This document shows positions 16,411 through 27,549 of a stretch of 64,000 bases of DNA, one piece after another. The notes beneath the pieces were generated by a model that ran no database searches, was not told where the DNA came from, and saw nothing but the letters and a program-made list of their open reading frames with translations. Position 1 is the stretch's first letter; every line of letters starts with the position of its first letter. The stretch is from Escherichia phage B9-1. The translations under genes were made by a program, and so were the position numbers. The stretch lies in the sequence record OQ420740.1, one strand, 5' to 3'.

Positions 16411-16704
16411 TCAAGACTTTTTAGTCTTTCTTGGAGAGCTTTTTGTTGATCTTTTCCTTTTGTGGTAGATTCCAAGTGCGGCGTTTTCTTGGGCGCACGT
16501 TTTAACAGTTCTCAGACAAGAACTTTCAGCTTTAGGCAGGTTTAACTCCCACCAACCAAGCCAGTAAAGTTCTGATTCAGACAACTGCTCAGATTCAGCC
16601 TTTCGATACAGTGCTTGCATGCCTCTGATAATGTCGTCCAGAGGCGTATCAAATACAAAAGCTGTCTTATCGAATTTCTCTTTTACAGGTTTCTTAGCCA
16701 TCAA
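16411..16704 (-). CDS. hypothetical protein
   Basis: 97-aa ORF with basic C-terminal tail. Confidence 0.3.
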   Translation of the reverse strand: MMAKKPVKEKFDKTAFVFDTPLDDIIRGMQALYRKAESEQLSESELYWLGWWELNLPKAESSCLRTVKTCAQENAALGIYHKRKRSTKSSPRKTKKS

Positions 16705-17158
16705 GGTAACCCTCTATCCACGAAAAGTCAGTCTTCCATTCTGGAACTTTACTAAGCTCACGCCACTCTGCAAAGCAGTCTCGGTAATACGCCTCTGCCA
16801 TACCCTTGGTGATCTTATTCACCTTAGCCAACTGATTAACTGCCTGAGCATACTTTCCACGGATATTTGCTAACCCAGGATGCACCGATGTGTGACAATC
16901 TGGGCACAATGCTATCAGTCCGACAAGCCGGATCACTCCCTCTTCGAAAGTGTAAAGTTCATGACACTCCACCGGATGTTTGCTGCCTTTACCGCCGCAC
17001 ACCTCACAAGTATAGTTGGCTTCTCTGTAGCACTTCTTACGGATCTTATCCCACTCACTCCTCTTCACAGCGTTTCGGAGATTATTATACCAAGCTGTCT
17101 CTGGGATCAGCTGTACAATAAGCCTGCGTTCAGATTTCATTAAACGTCCGTCTTCCAC
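16694..17158 (-). CDS. zinc-finger protein, possibly HNH-like nuclease
   Basis: 154 aa; 'CEVCGGKGSKHPVECHE...CPDCH' cysteine/histidine cluster. Confidence 0.35.
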   Translation of the reverse strand: MEDGRLMKSERRLIVQLIPETAWYNNLRNAVKRSEWDKIRKKCYREANYTCEVCGGKGSKHPVECHELYTFEEGVIRLVGLIALCPDCHTSVHPGLANIRGKYAQAVNQLAKVNKITKGMAEAYYRDCFAEWRELSKVPEWKTDFSWIEGYLDG

Positions 17159-17374: not shown

Positions 17375-17437
17375 GGTTAAACTCTCCTTAACATTTTACT
17401 GGGTAACAATACCACATCCATGTGGTCATGTCAATGA

Positions 17438-18032: not shown

Positions 18033-19316
18033 TCATTCCAGAACCTCCCAAGTGTCCGGGTTAACATTTCGGACGCAGATGCCGACAGGGAATTGGTAGT
18101 TGTTGTCTTCTGTCCTTGCTTGATATTTGAAGGTGACAAACTTGCCGATCATTTCCTGCATCCTGTCATAGCTACGCTCCTCGTGCGTACCTTTCATCTT
18201 CATTTTAACAACGATACCTTCCTTGTCAACACAGATAAGAACACCTTCATCATTCTTATCTTTCTCAACGTCAATAACTTTCACCTCAGCATCGTTGAAC
18301 TTTTTCCATTTCAATGCTTCAGATGTTCGCTGACCGTATTCGTATTTACCACAGAAGTTACGCATGATAGTACCTTCATATCCTTCGGACATGAATACAC
18401 CAACAGATTCTTCGCAATGATCAACTGTGTACGCAAGCTCTGCGTCAACAACCTTGATATGGTCAAGCATCAGAGTGGTAATGGTATCTTCTGCATCCAT
18501 AAGATCCTTGCATCGTCCAGATTCTGTTTCCGGATCCCACCATACCTTGTCACTAGGGATGTCGAAAATATGATACTCTAAGTCATAGCTACAGTACCCT
18601 CCGTAACGCAAATCATCACGAACAGGCTCAACATCAACAGGAATATCTACCTTATTGAAGTTTTTGTATGTTGATAAGCCTGCCTTAATTGCGGCATGAC
18701 GGCGTTTTTTATCTGCCTCGTAGTCTTTATCGATCTCGGCCTGAATCTCTTCCTGTGTGCGCCAACGTTTAGCAAGAGACACTATTTTCTGCAGAGGCAG
18801 ACCATGAATATAGATCTCTCCGTCAAGCTGTTTAATCCCAGTGGTGAAGTGGAAAGAACGAAGTTGCTCCAGAAGCTTTCCTTGAATAGGGTAGGACTTA
18901 TTACCACGGGAAATAAATTTAGGCTCACCGTTTTGGAAAACAACCAGTAGACGAAGGCCATCTAACTTACGCAAGATCCAGCAAGGTAATTTAAGTGCCT
19001 TTCCACGCTTCAGGTAGTCATGCACCAGCATGGGTAAAAGGTCAACACCCTGCTCGCAATCTTCCATATTTTCAACATACCCCAGACGGACTTGTTTTTC
19101 CCACTTACTGATCGCTTCCAGCTCAGCCTGTTGCTCAGCTGTAGTTTCATTGGCACGACCCACGTTCTTAGGTGTGCAGATCGTCTCTTTGTATTGCAGT
19201 TTACCATCAAGCTTGCCAAACTCTACAATAACCTTATCACCATCCGTGAATACTTTCCACTGTTGGTAGCTGCCATCTTTGTTCAGTGCGTACAGTGTTG
19301 TTTTGATCTGATGCAT
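18033..19316 (-). CDS. ATP-dependent DNA ligase
   Basis: 427 aa; adenylation motif I 'RKLDGLRLLVV' (KxDGxR). Confidence 0.75.
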   Translation of the reverse strand: MHQIKTTLYALNKDGSYQQWKVFTDGDKVIVEFGKLDGKLQYKETICTPKNVGRANETTAEQQAELEAISKWEKQVRLGYVENMEDCEQGVDLLPMLVHDYLKRGKALKLPCWILRKLDGLRLLVVFQNGEPKFISRGNKSYPIQGKLLEQLRSFHFTTGIKQLDGEIYIHGLPLQKIVSLAKRWRTQEEIQAEIDKDYEADKKRRHAAIKAGLSTYKNFNKVDIPVDVEPVRDDLRYGGYCSYDLEYHIFDIPSDKVWWDPETESGRCKDLMDAEDTITTLMLDHIKVVDAELAYTVDHCEESVGVFMSEGYEGTIMRNFCGKYEYGQRTSEALKWKKFNDAEVKVIDVEKDKNDEGVLICVDKEGIVVKMKMKGTHEERSYDRMQEMIGKFVTFKYQARTEDNNYQFPVGICVRNVNPDTWEVLE

Positions 19317-19585
19317 TACTCAGCCTCTTCCTTAAAAATTTTAAACATCTCTTCTTTGCTCATTACCAACCAGTCTCCCATAAAGTCAACTAACCAATCC
19401 CCTTGGTACAAGACCAGGTTACCAAACGGCTCGACAAGCTCACACATGCGAAGAATATCTCTGGTCCGAACAGGTGATGGTGCAAACACCCCTGTATCAA
19501 TCCACCGTTGCAGATCAGATACTGATGAAGAGCTTCCGTCAAACTGGTGTGCTTCTACAGGTTTAGCAAGATTAAATAACGGCAT
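19316..19585 (-). CDS. hypothetical protein
   Basis: 89-aa ORF. Confidence 0.3.
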   Translation of the reverse strand: MPLFNLAKPVEAHQFDGSSSSVSDLQRWIDTGVFAPSPVRTRDILRMCELVEPFGNLVLYQGDWLVDFMGDWLVMSKEEMFKIFKEEAE

Positions 19586-19880
19586 TGCAGTCCTCCTTCT
19601 CTAATAGGTCTTTTATCGGGTAAACAAGCAGGTGTGGATCGTAATAATTTATAGTTTTATTCTGCCACACTATGAACTTAATTACAACTAAATTTACCAC
19701 ATCTTTATCTCCATGTAGTCCAACACACAGATTTGTCCATATTTTGTGGTTGAATACTTTGCTGTCGATGTAGATCTTAGTGTCAAACTTATCCTCTATC
19801 CTACCTATAAGTTTAACCAATTCTTTCATCTGATCCCCAAACACAGCATCGTTTTCAAGATCTCTGGAGTGCTTGTACAT
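19572..19880 (-). CDS. hypothetical protein
   Basis: 102-aa ORF. Confidence 0.3.
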   Translation of the reverse strand: MYKHSRDLENDAVFGDQMKELVKLIGRIEDKFDTKIYIDSKVFNHKIWTNLCVGLHGDKDVVNLVVIKFIVWQNKTINYYDPHLLVYPIKDLLEKEDCNAVI

Positions 19881-19944
19881 AACTTTCTACCTCACTTGCA
19901 TACTTTCCGAAACAAGTAAAGCCGGGATCGCCCCGGCTATGTTA

Positions 19945-20658
19945 TTAAATATATTCTGTTACATCCTTGAAGCTTGAAGGCTTCATAATCTTACCTTTAC
20001 TATCAAGAAATATGATAACTTTATTTCCGTTGTAGAATTCTTCTTTAGCAACAAAACCTTCATAGCGACCATCAAAGCGTCGCTCAAGATCTTTAATCTC
20101 CAACTCGATGAGTTGTTCAGCAGGCATATCTGCACTGGCACCGTGTGAATATCGCAGATGGTTGACGCGTGCAAACTTGCTGTCATTAGATTTTAGAACC
20201 TTCCGCATCATCCCGCACACATCACCGCGAAGCTGGAACAGTAAAACCGTTGACAGCTCTGCTAAGCGGTAAGCAGACGCTCTTTGCTTAGAGGTATTTT
20301 TCGCAGCGATCAGTGTATCATAAAATTCACCGATCTTAAACTTAAGACCTCGCGGGTTATCAAACAGGTTTGACCACTTTTCATGGTTATCGTTAACAAG
20401 ATAAGCGGCATAACTTGTGACAACGTGAAGATCGCAAGCCTCTTTTAGGAGATGATCTCCACCATCACCTTTCTCCAACTCTTCCAAAACTTCATTAAAC
20501 TCTTCCTCAATGAAACTAAGCTGGAGTTCGAATGGTGTGTATGATTTTTTCACTTTAGCTGCTACACGGTTCCAATTTTCCACCCAGTTGGCAGACCAAA
20601 GGTAGTTTTCAGGTTGAGACAGTTTTTCCAGGTTGTCGATCAGTTTAGTATTCAGCAT
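19945..20658 (-). CDS. hypothetical protein, weak MazG-like signature
   Basis: 237 aa; acidic helix 'EEEFNEVLEELEK...LLKEACDLHVV' reminiscent of MazG-type NTP pyrophosphohydrolases; weak. Confidence 0.3.
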   Translation of the reverse strand: MLNTKLIDNLEKLSQPENYLWSANWVENWNRVAAKVKKSYTPFELQLSFIEEEFNEVLEELEKGDGGDHLLKEACDLHVVTSYAAYLVNDNHEKWSNLFDNPRGLKFKIGEFYDTLIAAKNTSKQRASAYRLAELSTVLLFQLRGDVCGMMRKVLKSNDSKFARVNHLRYSHGASADMPAEQLIELEIKDLERRFDGRYEGFVAKEEFYNGNKVIIFLDSKGKIMKPSSFKDVTEYI

Positions 20659-20672
20659 TAAAAGGCCTCCGC

Positions 20673-21434
20673 TTACAGTTCCATAAAGTTTTCTACGATG
20701 TCAATAAATGTTTTATCAGAGAAAGCGTCAACCGCCCCGTTAAACCAAACTGGGATGCCGCGATCCTCATACTGGTAAATGTCACTACGTGAAATGCCAT
20801 TCTCCCCTAAATGCTGTGAGTCGTATTTGTTAACGATCAGCAGTTTGGTCCCCTTATTACAGGCAGGGAATAGCTCCCAGTTAAAATTGATAACTGTGTT
20901 GGAGCACCCTACAAGGATAACCATATCATTGCTCGTCAGAGAAGTCAACAGGTCATACATGTCTGTATACTTTGGAGCTACTTCTCCGAAGAACACGACA
21001 TTAGGCTTAACCCAAGTATACTTGCTTGCATCTACCTCAGAGTATCCAATGTCTTTAATGACGTTACTCCCTTCATCATCCTCGTAGACTATTTCTGGCA
21101 AATATCCGTGGACATGTAAAATATCTTCATGTTTTACACCAGCACGCTCCAGCAAATCATCTACATTGGTTGTCAGGTTGATCACGCGACCAGACCAGCG
21201 GGAATACCATTCAGCGATCCGGAGATGTGCAAGGTTAGGATCAACACTGCCCAGAGCTACACGCCGTGCATTGTAAAAGTCATGAACCTTATAATAGTTC
21301 TTGGCAAAGGTGTGGATGTTACACACCTCATCGATGCTGAAATTCTCCCACATTGCAGTGCCACCAGATCGGAAAGTTGGGATACCAGATTCAGCGCTCA
21401 AACCAGCACCGGAGATAATGATCAGTCGTCGCAT
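20673..21434 (-). CDS. SIR2-family NAD-dependent protein (sirtuin-like, no zinc ribbon)
   Basis: 253 aa; 'GAGLSAESGIPTFRSGG', 'TTNVDDLLERAG', 'HVHG', 'VVFFGE' in canonical sirtuin order; CxxC zinc module not evident. Confidence 0.8.
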   Translation of the reverse strand: MRRLIIISGAGLSAESGIPTFRSGGTAMWENFSIDEVCNIHTFAKNYYKVHDFYNARRVALGSVDPNLAHLRIAEWYSRWSGRVINLTTNVDDLLERAGVKHEDILHVHGYLPEIVYEDDEGSNVIKDIGYSEVDASKYTWVKPNVVFFGEVAPKYTDMYDLLTSLTSNDMVILVGCSNTVINFNWELFPACNKGTKLLIVNKYDSQHLGENGISRSDIYQYEDRGIPVWFNGAVDAFSDKTFIDIVENFMEL

Positions 21435-21442
21435 AAGTGTCC

Positions 21443-21793
21443 TCAGTAGATGTTTTGTTTAATCTCTATTCCAAACTTTTTAAACGAGTCAGCAGCAAGC
21501 ATGAATTTACGAGCAGCTGATGGGTTAGAAGTATGCACGAAAATCTTCACGTTGTCAACTACAGGAGGCTTACCAAATACAAATTTTTCCTCCAGCATAG
21601 ATAGGCAATCGTACCCTTCAAATACCTCTCCAAGGTCGTTGTCCATGTGCCACTCAGAAACGCGCCTGTAGAGCTTTCCCTTATCGTTAATAAAATCCAT
21701 AAACTCAGAGGAATTCTTTAGCCAAAGAGCATCTGGGAGCCCATAATTTGACGGATCTCTCAAGTCATCCAGCCACACAATCAACTTCTTCAT
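21443..21793 (-). CDS. hypothetical protein
   Basis: 116-aa ORF between SIR2 and RNA ligase; stop overlaps next start. Confidence 0.3.
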   Translation of the reverse strand: MKKLIVWLDDLRDPSNYGLPDALWLKNSSEFMDFINDKGKLYRRVSEWHMDNDLGEVFEGYDCLSMLEEKFVFGKPPVVDNVKIFVHTSNPSAARKFMLAADSFKKFGIEIKQNIY

Positions 21794-22725
21794 TGCATAT
21801 AGTCCTCGTTGTGGAAATAGCAGTCAAGTATCTCACGGCGTTCCTGCTCCAGGAGGCAATTCCACACATCTTCTGTGTAGTTTCTACGAATGAAGTTTAC
21901 CATGCCGTAAAACTCTTCGTCAACACGTTTAAAGATATCATCATCCCAAATCTTCCAAGCTTTACCCCTCATTACGGCCTTCCGTGCCAAATAGTATGGA
22001 GACTTGATCTTCAGCTGAAGATCATAAGGGTAGTAAGGCTTACGAATCATATACCCTTCACCTCTTGTTTCTGCAGCTAATTCTTTTGCATAGCTGAACG
22101 GAATTTCACGCACAGTGTGAGGACGTTTTGCACCAAGGTATTTGGCAATCCCATCTAAAGCTGCTTCTGGTAGCATTATTCCGGAATCATTATATCTGCA
22201 ACCTATCAAATATGCGCCATGATCTTCCTGAACAATATGCGGATCTGAAGGGTGACAAATTTCAAACATGAATGTCATGTTTTCATGGCCCATAACCTTC
22301 TTGATAAGATCTAAATTACCACATTGCTCCTGGATGGTTTCCTTTGCAAGGTTACAATATGGAGAATCAAGAGACCCGGTTGTTGAAAACAATAGTTCAC
22401 CTTTATGAGATGATACCACACCAAGGAATCCGTTCTTTTTCTCTACCGCCGTCACAAGTTTATTGTCAGGCAGGTTGGTGGAGTTTTCTCCCAAATTAAA
22501 CACTTTTGTGAAGGGCCATGCCACAACATTTCCTTCATTACCGACAACAATGCCTCGGCACTCTAGTAAACGCGGAGACAAATGCCATAAATTGTTGTAG
22601 AATACTTTTCTGGCATATTTGTAGATCTTTAATCCAAGATCTGGGTAATATCTGCTGGTTACAAGACCTTTGTCAACCAGGTCGTCTGCATTAAAATACT
22701 TCATCATACATTCCTCATTTGTCAT
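21790..22725 (-). CDS. RNA ligase (Rnl1-like nucleotidyltransferase)
   Basis: 311 aa; motif I 'EKKNGFLG' (compare T4 Rnl1 'KEDGSL'), motif IV-like 'GEGYMIRK', motif V-like 'LKIK'; a separate KxDG DNA ligase exists at 18033-19316. Confidence 0.55.
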   Translation of the reverse strand: MTNEECMMKYFNADDLVDKGLVTSRYYPDLGLKIYKYARKVFYNNLWHLSPRLLECRGIVVGNEGNVVAWPFTKVFNLGENSTNLPDNKLVTAVEKKNGFLGVVSSHKGELLFSTTGSLDSPYCNLAKETIQEQCGNLDLIKKVMGHENMTFMFEICHPSDPHIVQEDHGAYLIGCRYNDSGIMLPEAALDGIAKYLGAKRPHTVREIPFSYAKELAAETRGEGYMIRKPYYPYDLQLKIKSPYYLARKAVMRGKAWKIWDDDIFKRVDEEFYGMVNFIRRNYTEDVWNCLLEQERREILDCYFHNEDYMQ

Positions 22726-22768
22726 TTTGTCCCTTTATTCTGCCACACAAATAACCTGGTGTCAACAC

Positions 22769-22797
22769 TTGAAATTAACAAAACAGTTAGGTATACT
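22769..22797 (+). promoter_or_regulatory. sigma70-like promoter (TTGAAA-N17-TATACT)
   Basis: -35 at 22769-74, 17-nt spacer, -10 at 22792-97, then RBS GGAGAG and ATG 22826. Confidence 0.5.
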
Positions 22798-22825
22798 ATC
22801 ATTAAAATTAAAACGGAGAGTTACT

Positions 22826-23236
22826 ATGTCTAAAATGCTATATATCGTGCGTGGTCTACCAGGGTCTGGCAAATCAACACTGGCAAATGCGCTATCTTTA
22901 GAAGGTCTGTATCCACATTTTGAGAACGATATGTTCTGGTACGACGATGACGGCAATTACAATTGGGATGCAAGTAAAGTAACACTTGCAGCAAAATGGT
23001 GCAAAGATAACGTAGAAGATATGATGCGTATGGGCTACGACCGTATCGTGGTAAGTAATACGTTTACAAAAGAAAAATATGTGCAAGAATATATTGACAT
23101 GGCGATCAGTCATGGATATAGTTATACCGTAATCGTGGTTGAAAACCGCCATGGTAATAAAAGCATTCATGATGTTCCAGACAGGGTTGTGGATCGTATG
23201 GAACGCCAGCTTAAAAACTGCATTAAACTTAAATGA
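22826..23236 (+). CDS. polynucleotide 5'-kinase-like P-loop protein
   Basis: 136 aa from the RBS-supported ATG; 'GLPGSGKST' (T4 Pnkp 'GCPGSGKST'), 'IVVSNTFT' (T4 'VIISDTNL'), 'VPDRVVDRM'. Confidence 0.7.
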   Translation: MSKMLYIVRGLPGSGKSTLANALSLEGLYPHFENDMFWYDDDGNYNWDASKVTLAAKWCKDNVEDMMRMGYDRIVVSNTFTKEKYVQEYIDMAISHGYSYTVIVVENRHGNKSIHDVPDRVVDRMERQLKNCIKLK

Positions 23237-23243
23237 GGAATGT

Positions 23244-23798
23244 ATGAAATACTTTGTAACAAGCGACACACACTTTCTCCACCAGCGGGTAATGGAGTTC
23301 GACTCATGTCAAAAACACAGATCTCAGTATGATCACAATCTTGACAGTATGAATGCGGGAATCATCACCAAGTGGAACTCTGTTGTGTCACCTGCAGACA
23401 CTGTGTTTCACTTGGGGGATATTGCGTGCACTAATGATAAGAATATCAACAAATTGCTTCCAGATGTTCTAAATATGCTGAACGGACATATTATTCTTGT
23501 TCGTGGTAACCATGACACAAGGACGACTGTCAGAATTATGAAAGAGTTCGGTCATGAGGTTGTAGATTATTACGAGCTTCGCCACAACAAGAATTTGATC
23601 TGTATGAGCCATTACCAGTTTGCAAAGTGGAACAGAAAGCCTCACGGATCAGTCCAACTGTTCGGTCATGCTCACGGAACCACACAGCAGTTGTTTGGCA
23701 GGCAGTTTGATGTCGGTTGGGATGTGTGGGGGAGACTCTTACCATTAGAAGAGGCATACCGTATTGCAATGAGTCTTGCTATTGACAGCGGGGAGTAA
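23244..23798 (+). CDS. calcineurin-like metallophosphoesterase
   Basis: 184 aa from ATG 23244; 'VTSDTHF', 'HLGDI', 'VRGNHD', 'GHAHG' metallophosphatase motifs. Confidence 0.75.
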   Translation: MKYFVTSDTHFLHQRVMEFDSCQKHRSQYDHNLDSMNAGIITKWNSVVSPADTVFHLGDIACTNDKNINKLLPDVLNMLNGHIILVRGNHDTRTTVRIMKEFGHEVVDYYELRHNKNLICMSHYQFAKWNRKPHGSVQLFGHAHGTTQQLFGRQFDVGWDVWGRLLPLEEAYRIAMSLAIDSGE

Positions 23799-23845
23799 TC
23801 CCTGCTATTTTAAAGAAAATTGCCACACAAGGAGAATCAGGAGAT

Positions 23846-24196
23846 ATGAAAGATGGGGATAAGCTGCTATATCTTAAAGTCCCCCTTGAAATACTGTCTA
23901 TGTCAAAAGTTTTGAATGACACAACTGGGGAGGTTGTTGTTCTTGACTTATATGACAAGATCGTATACTGCTACCTGCACAACTGGTACAAGCTTGGAGG
24001 AAATTCACGCTTCACACCCAGCACAAGGAAAATTGCAGCAGATGTTGGGATAAAGAAAACAAAAGCAGCAGCGTGCGTTAAAACTTTAGAATGTGCAGGA
24101 GTGGTTGAAATATCCACACAAGGGAGAGGTAAAAGATGCACATTTTCCAAAGTTTTGCCACCAGAAGAGGTTATTCGAATGTCAACAACTGGTTAG
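23846..24196 (+). CDS. hypothetical protein (possible DNA-binding)
   Basis: 116-aa ORF immediately upstream of the iteron array. Confidence 0.35.
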   Translation: MKDGDKLLYLKVPLEILSMSKVLNDTTGEVVVLDLYDKIVYCYLHNWYKLGGNSRFTPSTRKIAADVGIKKTKAAACVKTLECAGVVEISTQGRGKRCTFSKVLPPEEVIRMSTTG

Positions 24197-26737: not shown

Positions 26738-26812
26738 GCCCTGTTAGCTTAGTGGATAAAGCAGCGGCCTTCTAAGCCGTTGACACTGGTTCGAGTCCAG
26801 TACGGGGTGCCA
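26738..26812 (+). tRNA. tRNA-Arg (anticodon UCU)
   Basis: Hand-folded cloverleaf: acceptor gccctgt/acggggt, D-stem gctt/aagc, anticodon loop CUUCUAA, T-loop TTCGAGT, encoded CCA. Confidence 0.75.
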
Positions 26813-26816
26813 AATT

Positions 26817-26903
26817 GGGGAGTTATCCCGTAGAGGTAGCGGTGTAGACTGTAAATCTATTGTCATTGCGACTCGGGTGGTTCGACTCCACCACTCCCCA
26901 CCA
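26817..26903 (+). tRNA. tRNA-Tyr (anticodon GUA), long variable arm
   Basis: Acceptor ggggagt/actcccc, anticodon loop CUGUAAA, T-arm ggtgg-TTCGACT-ccacc, encoded CCA, 87 nt. Confidence 0.7.
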
Positions 26904-27017
26904 AATTTATATTTTTAAATGCATAAATCATACAGATAATGACATTGATATTTATCGTCGTTTATACTAGTCACTAACTGCTCGAAAATCAGTGTCATTA
27001 TCAGTGTAATTTATAAA

Positions 27018-27108
27018 GGAGGGTAGGGAGCAATGGTGCTCAAGCGGTCTTGAAAACCGTCCCGTTGAGGATGACTCGATGATGGTTCGATTCCATTACT
27101 CTCCGCCA
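27018..27108 (+). tRNA. tRNA-Ser (anticodon UGA), long variable arm
   Basis: Acceptor ggagggt/actctcc, anticodon loop CUUGAAA, T-arm gatgg-TTCGATT-ccatt, encoded CCA, 91 nt. Confidence 0.7.
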
Positions 27109-27206
27109 CATTGTTGACCTTGTAATTAAGCGAAAGCCGGAAGCAGAACCGGATTATCAAATGTTACAGTCGTCATCGCCGACTAGCCACATGGTCAACA
27201 TATTTC

Positions 27207-27305
27207 GCTAGGTAAGCCCTTTGGCAAGGGCGAGGATTTTTAATCCTGAAAATAGACGAGGTAGTCGTTGAATACATAGGTGGTTCGATTCCATCACCTA
27301 GCACC
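27207..27305 (+). tRNA. atypical tRNA-like element (99 nt), identity unresolved
   Basis: Perfect 7-bp acceptor gctaggt/acctagc, D-arm gccc...gggc and T-arm ggtgg-TTCGATT-ccatc, but about 30 extra nt between anticodon region and T-arm; a possible UUU anticodon loop 'tttttaa' is non-canonical. Confidence 0.35.
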
Positions 27306-27309
27306 TTTT

Positions 27310-27385
27310 GCTGATGTAGCACAATTGGCAGTGCAATTGATTTGTAATCAATAGGTTGCAGGTTCAAGTCCTGCCATCAGCACCA
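27310..27385 (+). tRNA. tRNA-Thr (anticodon UGU)
   Basis: Acceptor gctgatg/catcagc, D-stem gcac/gtgc, anticodon loop UUUGUAA, T-loop TTCAAGT, encoded CCA. Confidence 0.75.
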
Positions 27386-27386
27386 T

Positions 27387-27461
27387 GGCCCTGTAGCTGG
27401 AAGGTTCAAGCAAGCGACTCATAATCGCCAGACGGTGGTTCAATTCCACCCAGGGCCACCA
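27387..27461 (+). tRNA. tRNA-Met (anticodon CAU; initiator, elongator or Ile2 type not distinguishable)
   Basis: Acceptor ggccctg/cagggcc, anticodon loop CUCAUAA, T-arm ggtgg-TTCAATT-ccacc, encoded CCA. Confidence 0.7.
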
Positions 27462-27472
27462 AATAATAAATA

Positions 27473-27549
27473 CTCCGCGTAGCTCAGCTTGGTAGAGCGC
27501 CTGATTTGGGATCAGGAGGTCGAGTGTTCGAATCACTCCGTGGAGACCA
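27473..27549 (+). tRNA. tRNA-Pro (anticodon UGG)
   Basis: Acceptor ctccgcg/cgtggag with C1-G72, D-arm gctc-agcttggta-gagc, anticodon loop UUUGGGA, T-loop TTCGAAT, encoded CCA. Confidence 0.75.

Follow-up and report, generated by a model that had tools for sequence, protein, structure and literature searches.

What does a sirtuin do in the midst of phage genes for RNA repair? The open reading frame (ORF) that raises this question occupies positions 20673-21434 on the minus strand of a 64,000-nucleotide (nt) stretch of Escherichia phage B9-1 (sequence record OQ420740.1; hereafter the window). The phage belongs to Vequintavirus and is an E. coli myovirus of the rV5/FV3 type. A preliminary description, made from the sequence alone, had placed three minus-strand ORFs here, and all three are present: 19945-20658 (237 amino acids, aa), 20673-21434 (253 aa), and 21443-21793 (116 aa). 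We tentatively propose that the 253-aa product is a catalytically competent user of nicotinamide adenine dinucleotide (NAD+), that its gene is the third of a four-gene tRNA/RNA repair operon, and that it plays a role like that of KptA/Tpt1. The novelty first implied for this locus does not hold. The gene is annotated in hundreds of public phage records, as "Sir2-like" or "NAD-dependent deacetylase", and the operon was already described and interpreted in silico in 2022 (Iyer, Burroughs, Aravind et al., Viruses 14:1977; PMC9503650, section 3.7.3).

Sequence comparison and structural modelling agree that ORF 20673-21434 encodes a sirtuin with the sirtuin fold. The SIR2-family blocks that had been quoted for it are found in its product in the order given: GAGLSAESGIPTFR (residues 9-22), TTNVDDLLERAG (88-99), HVHG (107-110), and VVFFGE (146-151). 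The Pfam SIR2 profile (PF02146) aligns over profile positions 1-178 of 180 with E=1.1e-26 and 94.3 bits against a cut-off of 24, a match far beyond chance, and PHROG 2162, "Sir2", matches with E=9e-109. CobB-type models of NCBIfam match as well, but well under their equivalog cut-offs. The top matches of a phmmer search against the PDB are SIRT5, E. coli CobB, and Sir2Af1, with E values of about 5e-21. An AlphaFold2 model built on 60 homologues (predicted local distance difference test, pLDDT, 90.3; predicted template modelling score, 0.88) leads to the same proteins. Its best Foldseek match in the PDB is CobB (6rxq/1s5p; template modelling (TM) score 0.83 on the target), followed by Sir2Af1 and SIRT5; there are 295 matches at E<=0.001, and all of the top 50 are sirtuins. 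The fold is thus SIR2-like, as had been supposed.

Alignment of the phage sirtuin to CobB from the E. coli MG1655 record bears on its competence as an enzyme. The two proteins have in common GAGxSxxSG, FR, PNxAH, N90 and D92 of the TQNxD block, H109 in HVHG, VVFFGE, and GxS. Across 60 members of the phage clade, S16, F21, R22, N90, D92, H109, G110, F149, E151, G176, and S178 are invariant. The catalytic histidine and the NAD pocket, which the preliminary description had singled out for scrutiny, are therefore conserved, except that the phage clade has Thr in place of the TQN Gln (TTN). The absence of an evident CxxC zinc module is likewise borne out. The phage protein contains only three cysteines (C38, C177, and C192), none of them in the 35 residues between H109-G110 and V146 of VVFFGE, the segment in which CobB carries the four cysteines of its zinc module. 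This ribbon segment is about 7 residues shorter than that of CobB, but the model retains its beta hairpin (strands 110-118 and 124-128, pLDDT >95). Alignment and model together indicate that the ribbon is retained and that the zinc ligands alone are lost. The orthologues of SP15 (T5-like), phi92, SE131, and KVP40 also align with a ribbon devoid of zinc-ligand cysteines.

The two departures from CobB tend to occur together. In an exhaustive HMMER search that returned 5614 matches at E<=0.001, 146 of 150 cluster representatives could be scored: 79 combine Gln in TQN with at least 3 ribbon cysteines, 43 combine a non-Gln residue with at most 2, and 24 show a mixed state. The association of a non-Gln residue with zinc-ligand loss is strong (Fisher p=1.8e-15), in a test that leaves shared ancestry uncorrected and does not count independent events. 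The gene for one close zinc-containing, TQN-type relative (P0202) has an ankyrin-repeat protein gene on one side and a diacylglycerol kinase gene on the other (locus L066, 82-2226). This context looks cellular and not phage-like, and it suggests that the zinc-less phage clade was derived from small cellular CobB-like sirtuins. The acidic-acyl site is kept. Residues Y54 and R57 (FYNARR) align to FYNARR of CobB (Y92/R95) and FYHYRR of SIRT5 (Y102/R105), and both are invariant across the phage clade. Since the Tyr-x-x-Arg pair of CobB and SIRT5 binds acidic acyl groups, its invariance argues that the pocket of the phage enzymes accepts anionic groups. The passages of PMC9503650 that were searched contain none of the following: the zinc-ligand loss, the Gln-to-Thr exchange, the Tyr-x-x-Arg site, and the acidic isoelectric point (pI) considered below.

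How is the sirtuin gene organized with its neighbours? On the minus strand the gene order is Rnl1-like RNA ligase, cyclic-phosphate-processing receiver (cREC) protein, sirtuin, and MazG-like protein, and this unit is divergent from a kinase gene and a metallophosphoesterase gene. The ligase stop codon overlaps the cREC start, and gaps of only 8 nt and 14 nt separate cREC from the sirtuin and the sirtuin from the MazG-like gene, respectively. Directly after the MazG-like stop, a terminator-like hairpin (19920-19938, minus strand; 8-bp stem with 6 GC pairs and a T-rich tail) likely ends the four-gene unit. The ligase/kinase intergenic region contains a divergent pair of promoter-like sites (22737-22797, both strands), TTGACA-17-CAGAAT at 22765-22737 on the minus strand and TTGAAA-17-TATACT at 22769-22797 on the plus strand; like the hairpin, these come from a consensus scan only. 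The first gene of the operon (21790-22725, minus strand) encodes a 311-aa RNA ligase of the T4 Rnl1 family (Pfam RNA_lig_T4_1, E=8.3e-15; PHROG 562, E=2.7e-66) whose translation displays the lysine motif EKKNG. On the plus strand, a GGAGA ribosome-binding site precedes the start at 22826 of a 136-aa P-loop kinase resembling polynucleotide kinases (22826-23236; Pfam AAA_33, E=2.9e-10; PHROG 2071, E=8.6e-59; PHROG 505, "polynucleotide kinase", E=3.3e-10), which holds the Walker A motif GLPGSGKST. It is followed by a 184-aa calcineurin-like metallophosphoesterase (23244-23798, plus strand; Pfam Metallophos_2, E=1.7e-6; PHROG 547, E=5e-51; PDB 1xm7, E=7e-11) with DxH, GD, and GNHD motifs. PDB sequence searches with the RNA ligase, the kinase, and the MazG-like protein returned nothing useful. 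The RNA_lig_T4_1, polynucleotide-kinase-like AAA_33, Metallophos, and cREC genes all lie inside 3.9 kb. They thus combine a ligase, a kinase, and an end-phosphate enzyme in the manner of the modular RNA-repair syntax of Burroughs and Aravind (ligase, kinase, phosphatase, and accessory protein). The RNA repair genes had initially been regarded as mere neighbours of the sirtuin; their adjacency stands, but the operon evidence and section 3.7.3 of PMC9503650 place the sirtuin inside the repair module and not beside it.

The two flanking proteins, unassigned in the preliminary description, both match a described family. The 116-aa protein (21443-21793) matches Pfam cREC_REC (PF20274) with E=4.5e-14. 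It shows the features of the cREC group, first defined in a 2021 jumbo-phage paper of the Aravind group (PMC7824862): a receiver fold, conserved acidic, Thr/Ser, and Lys catalytic positions, and no histidine kinase partner. Among 48 homologues D51, D53, S89, K96, R12, H87, N90, and P91 are invariant, and D9, D10, N52, and T88 are nearly so (>=90%). The cREC profile drew chance-level matches to acyl carrier proteins and nothing else from the PDB. The 237-aa protein (19945-20658) matches PHROG 671, "nucleotide pyrophosphohydrolase", with E=5.5e-22, and it would be a MazG/HisE-like all-alpha nucleoside triphosphate pyrophosphohydrolase with a conserved C-terminal extension. E52, E53, E56, D76, and the SNDSK motif residues S157, N158, D159, and K161 are invariant in its family, and the Glu of the second metal motif (ExxD) varies. 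Its Pfam and PDB links are weak: PRA-PH reaches 13.7 bits, short of its cut-off of 21.3 (E=0.084), and the profile reaches HisE (E=0.034) and MazG (E=1.5) over the EExxE..D segment only. We therefore call it only MazG-like and regard it as a putative pyrophosphohydrolase. The idea that the flanking proteins could be partners of the sirtuin gains support from their predicted co-transcription, the overlapping or nearly abutting coding regions, and linkage across phage genera.

An ATP-dependent DNA ligase gene also lies near the MazG-like gene, at 18033-19316 on the minus strand, and the same holds at locus L007 and at loci L031-L062. In fact, the MazG-like gene tracks this DNA ligase at least as tightly as it tracks the sirtuin, and in phi92-like phages it comes after the DNA ligase with the sirtuin far off. 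Given this constant proximity, the MazG-like protein may serve ligases instead of the sirtuin.

Is the association of the sirtuin with RNA-end enzymes found elsewhere? Window positions 19000-24000 match 121 GenBank phage records at 90-99% identity, the best being ECP32 (99.0%), and by tblastn the sirtuin clade occurs in 1012 phage records from Vequintavirus, T5-like, phi92-like, Mydovirus, SE131-like, KVP40-like, and jumbo phages. We surveyed the genomic context by jackhmmer on the 10-kb flanks of 56 IMG/VR loci that encode sirtuin relatives, loci that represent just a handful of independent lineages. The RNA-ligase/kinase/phosphoesterase set lies within about 4 kb of the sirtuin at 13 of the 56, in at least 3 gene orders and with sirtuins of 44-94% identity; 2 of these 13 are short or cut contigs in which the ligase itself was not found. 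At 29 loci, a HAD "Swiss-army-knife" RNA-repair phosphatase (Pfam HAD_SAK_2, E=5e-20) is encoded about 1 kb downstream of the sirtuin. A metallophosphoesterase alone is present at 2, and none of these RNA-end genes lies within 10 kb at the remaining 12. Linkage of the sirtuin to RNA-end enzymes therefore recurs, with the order reshuffled, in several phage lineages and is absent in others. A search of related phages for the linked three-gene unit had been suggested. The linkage does recur, as the 13 loci with the repair set show, but not as a fixed unit, because the gene order is reshuffled and cREC is sometimes absent from these loci.

Several clade members, or their operon partners, lie close to genes of NAD+ metabolism. 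On marine metagenome contigs (L068, 8001-9888; L069, 531-4423), the gene for a TTN-type sirtuin without zinc ligands (P0180) overlaps one for a 389-aa NadR-like protein, composed of CTP_transf_like and a CoaE/AAA_18 kinase, and a HAD_SAK_2 phosphatase is encoded a few genes downstream. Recent work on NARP3 (PMC13464706) showed that NadR-like enzymes restore NAD+ for phages. Such adjacency to NAD+-regeneration genes fits the expectation for a real NAD+ consumer. In a phi92-like 152-kb contig (L007, 3376-8342), cREC is found beside a NAD+-regeneration pair, a NAPRTase-family gene and a phosphoribosyl pyrophosphate (PRPP) synthetase gene, and beside a metallophosphoesterase gene, and not beside the sirtuin or an RNA ligase. 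The sirtuin neighbours that were scanned include no Macro-domain partner.

How might a sirtuin act on RNA? In the established chemistry of sirtuins, a substrate oxygen attacks C1' of the nicotinamide ribose, and the His-activated 2'-OH then attacks the substrate centre. These are the same two steps as in the Tpt1 reaction, and the chemistry therefore fits a repair scheme. We propose that the six genes together form a phage module for repairing the tRNA/RNA breaks with 2',3'-cyclic phosphate and 5'-OH ends that host ribonucleases make. The kinase would phosphorylate the 5'-OH end (after Iyer et al. 2022), the cyclic phosphate would be opened by cREC, the metallophosphoesterase, or both, and the RNA ligase would seal the break. 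The sirtuin would then move the leftover 2'-phosphate onto NAD+, yielding nicotinamide and ADP-ribose 1'',2''-cyclic phosphate, which is the KptA/Tpt1 reaction carried out by an unrelated fold. Finally, the nucleotide by-products could be cleared by cREC and the MazG-like enzyme. We infer these steps following the prediction made in PMC9503650, and the agreement is itself in favour of this scheme, since the same prediction was made there independently. Other points that argue for it are features observed in the locus and its relatives, namely the sirtuin fold, a catalytic His and an NAD pocket conserved so that NAD+ chemistry would be preserved, the operon layout, the receiver fold and conserved catalytic positions of cREC, and the recurring, reshuffled linkage to RNA-end enzymes, together with the probable anion pocket, the NAD+-regeneration genes beside other clade members, the lack of a Macro-domain partner, and the lack of a defence-system match.

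A number of considerations weigh against this scheme. We know of no sirtuin shown to use a phosphate nucleophile, and a T4-type kinase, phosphoesterase, and Rnl1 clear the cyclic phosphate fully with no need for a 2'-phosphotransferase. The host E. coli already encodes KptA. The closest solved relatives of the phage protein are protein deacylases, whose acyl-specificity residues it keeps. The sirtuin is acidic (pI 4.9, net charge about -13), as is its clade (median pI 5.1 over 120 homologues), and in this it differs from RNA-binding Tpt1 enzymes. Within 7-10 kb of the sirtuin gene, phi92-like, SE131-like, KVP40, and some other phages have neither an RNA ligase nor a cREC or HAD gene, and the literature searched held no experimental work on the phage clade, only two in-silico papers from the Aravind group and unrelated work.

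Some of these same facts favour an ordinary lysine deacylase of the CobB/SIRT5 type, with a preference for acidic acyl groups such as succinyl and malonyl, that resets acylation of host or phage proteins during infection, perhaps including repair enzymes or translation factors. The operon position would then reflect co-expression and not shared RNA chemistry. We regard this as possible though doubtful. SIRT5, CobB, and Sir2Af1 lead both the sequence and the structure matches, the counterpart of the CobB Y92/R95 pair is invariant, the phage protein is acidic as is CobB, and the clade persists in several lineages that lack RNA-repair neighbours; moreover, E. coli CobB is annotated as a deacetylase, desuccinylase, and lipoamidase. 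However, the host supplies CobB already, neither the zinc ligands nor the conserved TQN Gln survive in the clade, the canonical GTSxxVxPA segment has diverged, RNA-end-processing neighbours are present at 42 of 56 loci, and the context points to no target protein. An enzyme that leaves ADP-ribose on a macromolecule, either as a cap or mark on RNA or DNA ends or as a modification of a host nuclease or translation factor, would achieve no net removal of 2'-phosphate, and we consider it unlikely here. The intact NAD pocket and His109 would also serve it, the second reaction step could be altered by the Gln-to-Thr exchange, which lies close to the nicotinamide-ribose pocket, DNA ligase is also consistently close by, and some sirtuins do ADP-ribosylate proteins (cited in PMC9503650). 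Yet the adjacent genes include no Macro, ARG, or NADAR eraser, a remark also found in that paper, and the sequence hints at no target.

The preliminary description had entertained decoy, NAD-salvage, and take-over roles, and these find no support in a protein so close to CobB and SIRT5. No PADLOC defence model matched the ORF at E<=0.01, and Pfam SIR2_2 stays below threshold (14.2 bits against a cut-off of 24.5; E=0.047). A defence-type SIR2 protein, decoy, or NADase was accordingly rejected as the leading explanation. A counter-defence device in any of its forms, whether decoy for host SIR2 immunity, free NADase, or degrader of NAD-derived immune signals, is in our judgement highly improbable. 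Phages are known to fight NAD-centred immunity (e.g., NARP3, PMC13464706), and the NAD+-regeneration genes beside some clade members would suit such a device. But a decoy does not require every catalytic residue to be invariant, and a free NADase would be harmful to this phage, for which NAD+-salvage genes are not annotated over most of the genome: tblastn searches of the window for NAPRTase, PRPP synthetase, and NadR-like genes gave no match, and the annotation of FV3, covering about 92 of 137 kb (record 44750-136947), contains none.

Returning to the RNA-repair scheme, we further speculate, with restrained confidence, that the zinc-less TTN phage sirtuins could be the first sirtuins with RNA as their physiological substrate, stripping 2'-phosphates from healed or ligated tRNA breaks at the expense of NAD+ and so replacing Tpt1/KptA. 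In this proposal, cREC, acting before or after the sirtuin, would represent a novel cyclic phosphodiesterase that needs no metal, and the joint loss of the zinc ligands and the Gln would mark the change of substrate. If the prediction is true, it extends sirtuin chemistry from acyl-lysine to RNA phosphate, reveals a second, convergent way of dealing with 2'-phosphates in RNA repair, and shows how common coliphages (rV5-like, T5-like, Mydovirus) withstand host defences that cleave tRNA. Because E. coli phages of the BASEL collection carry the system and the proteins are small, the hypothesis is directly testable.

The surroundings of the operon include a cluster of seven tRNA genes (26738-27549, plus strand) about 3 kb downstream of the kinase/phosphoesterase pair: Arg-TCT, Tyr-GTA, Ser-TGA, an odd Lys-like gene, Thr-TGT, Met/Ile-CAT, and Pro-TGG. 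The odd member (27207-27303, plus strand, 97 nt) was reported by ARAGORN as "tRNA-???" with a 4-base anticodon. The Rfam tRNA model fits it with 35.5 bits; in this alignment the anticodon loop reads UUUUUAA, which gives the anticodon UUU (Lys), and about 26 inserted nt fall in the variable region. Its orthologue in phage RudolfGeigy is annotated as tRNA-Lys. An intron in the anticodon loop that would need splicing-type ligation was considered and rejected, as the insertion falls in the variable region. Anticodon nucleases classically attack tRNA-Lys(UUU), and the Lys-like tRNA, encoded 4.4 kb from the repair operon, may complement it as a substitute that resists cleavage. HNH homing-endonuclease genes are dotted through the replication/repair region, for example at window positions 16694-17158 on the minus strand. 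In FV3 (L009, 17718-18401) and RudolfGeigy, one more HNH gene separates the endolysin gene from the membrane protein gene; the corresponding stretch of the window (17375-17437) contains no ORF of at least 50 aa.

Finally, how does the operon compare with known systems? PMC9503650 (section 3.7.3) sets out three sirtuin-centred phage neighbourhoods, of which the third is an SP15 type with a sirtuin and a HAD protein. Type 2, named "Escherichia phage V5 / Proteus phage Mydo", comprises a sirtuin, a T4-like tRNA ligase, cREC, a nucleotide kinase, a MazG pyrophosphatase, and sometimes a calcineurin-like phosphoesterase. The window operon has the same gene set in the same phage group and is that system. 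The prediction in that section is that the sirtuin strips 2'-phosphates from RNA with NAD+ in the manner of KptA/Tpt1, and the accessory enzymes are proposed there to open the cyclic phosphate or process the ADP-ribose cyclic phosphate.

With CobB and SIRT5 (PDB 1s5p, 6rxq, and 3riy) the phage sirtuin, which we class as a class III-like sirtuin devoid of zinc ligands, shares the fold (TM 0.75-0.84) and the GAGxS, FR, N, D, His, FGE, and Tyr-x-x-Arg elements. It differs in lacking the Zn(Cys)4 site and in its shortened ribbon; in carrying TTN instead of TQN, GCS instead of GTS, and VINF instead of VYPA; in adding a C-terminal extension of about 30 residues; and in its location in a phage RNA-repair operon. 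The defence SIR2 NADases (ThsA, DSR1/2, SIR2-HerA, and SIR2-pAgo) likewise have the SIR2 Rossmann core and use NAD+, nor are they known to carry a zinc ribbon. The phage sirtuin, however, has no sensor or partner domain, and housekeeping sirtuins are the structures nearest to it. For KptA, 98 phage records were found, most of them from jumbo phages; in the two KptA neighbourhoods inspected for a phage operon in which it replaces the sirtuin, no homologues of the window repair genes were found, and 10 neighbours had no Pfam match. The fold of KptA, a member of the ART superfamily (Pfam PTS_2-RNA), is unrelated to that of the phage protein, which as a sirtuin cannot therefore belong to the KptA/Tpt1 family. 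The likeness would be one of function only, in the proposed NAD+-dependent removal of RNA 2'-phosphate and in the type of pathway, which would in both cases combine a ligase, a kinase, and a cyclic phosphodiesterase.

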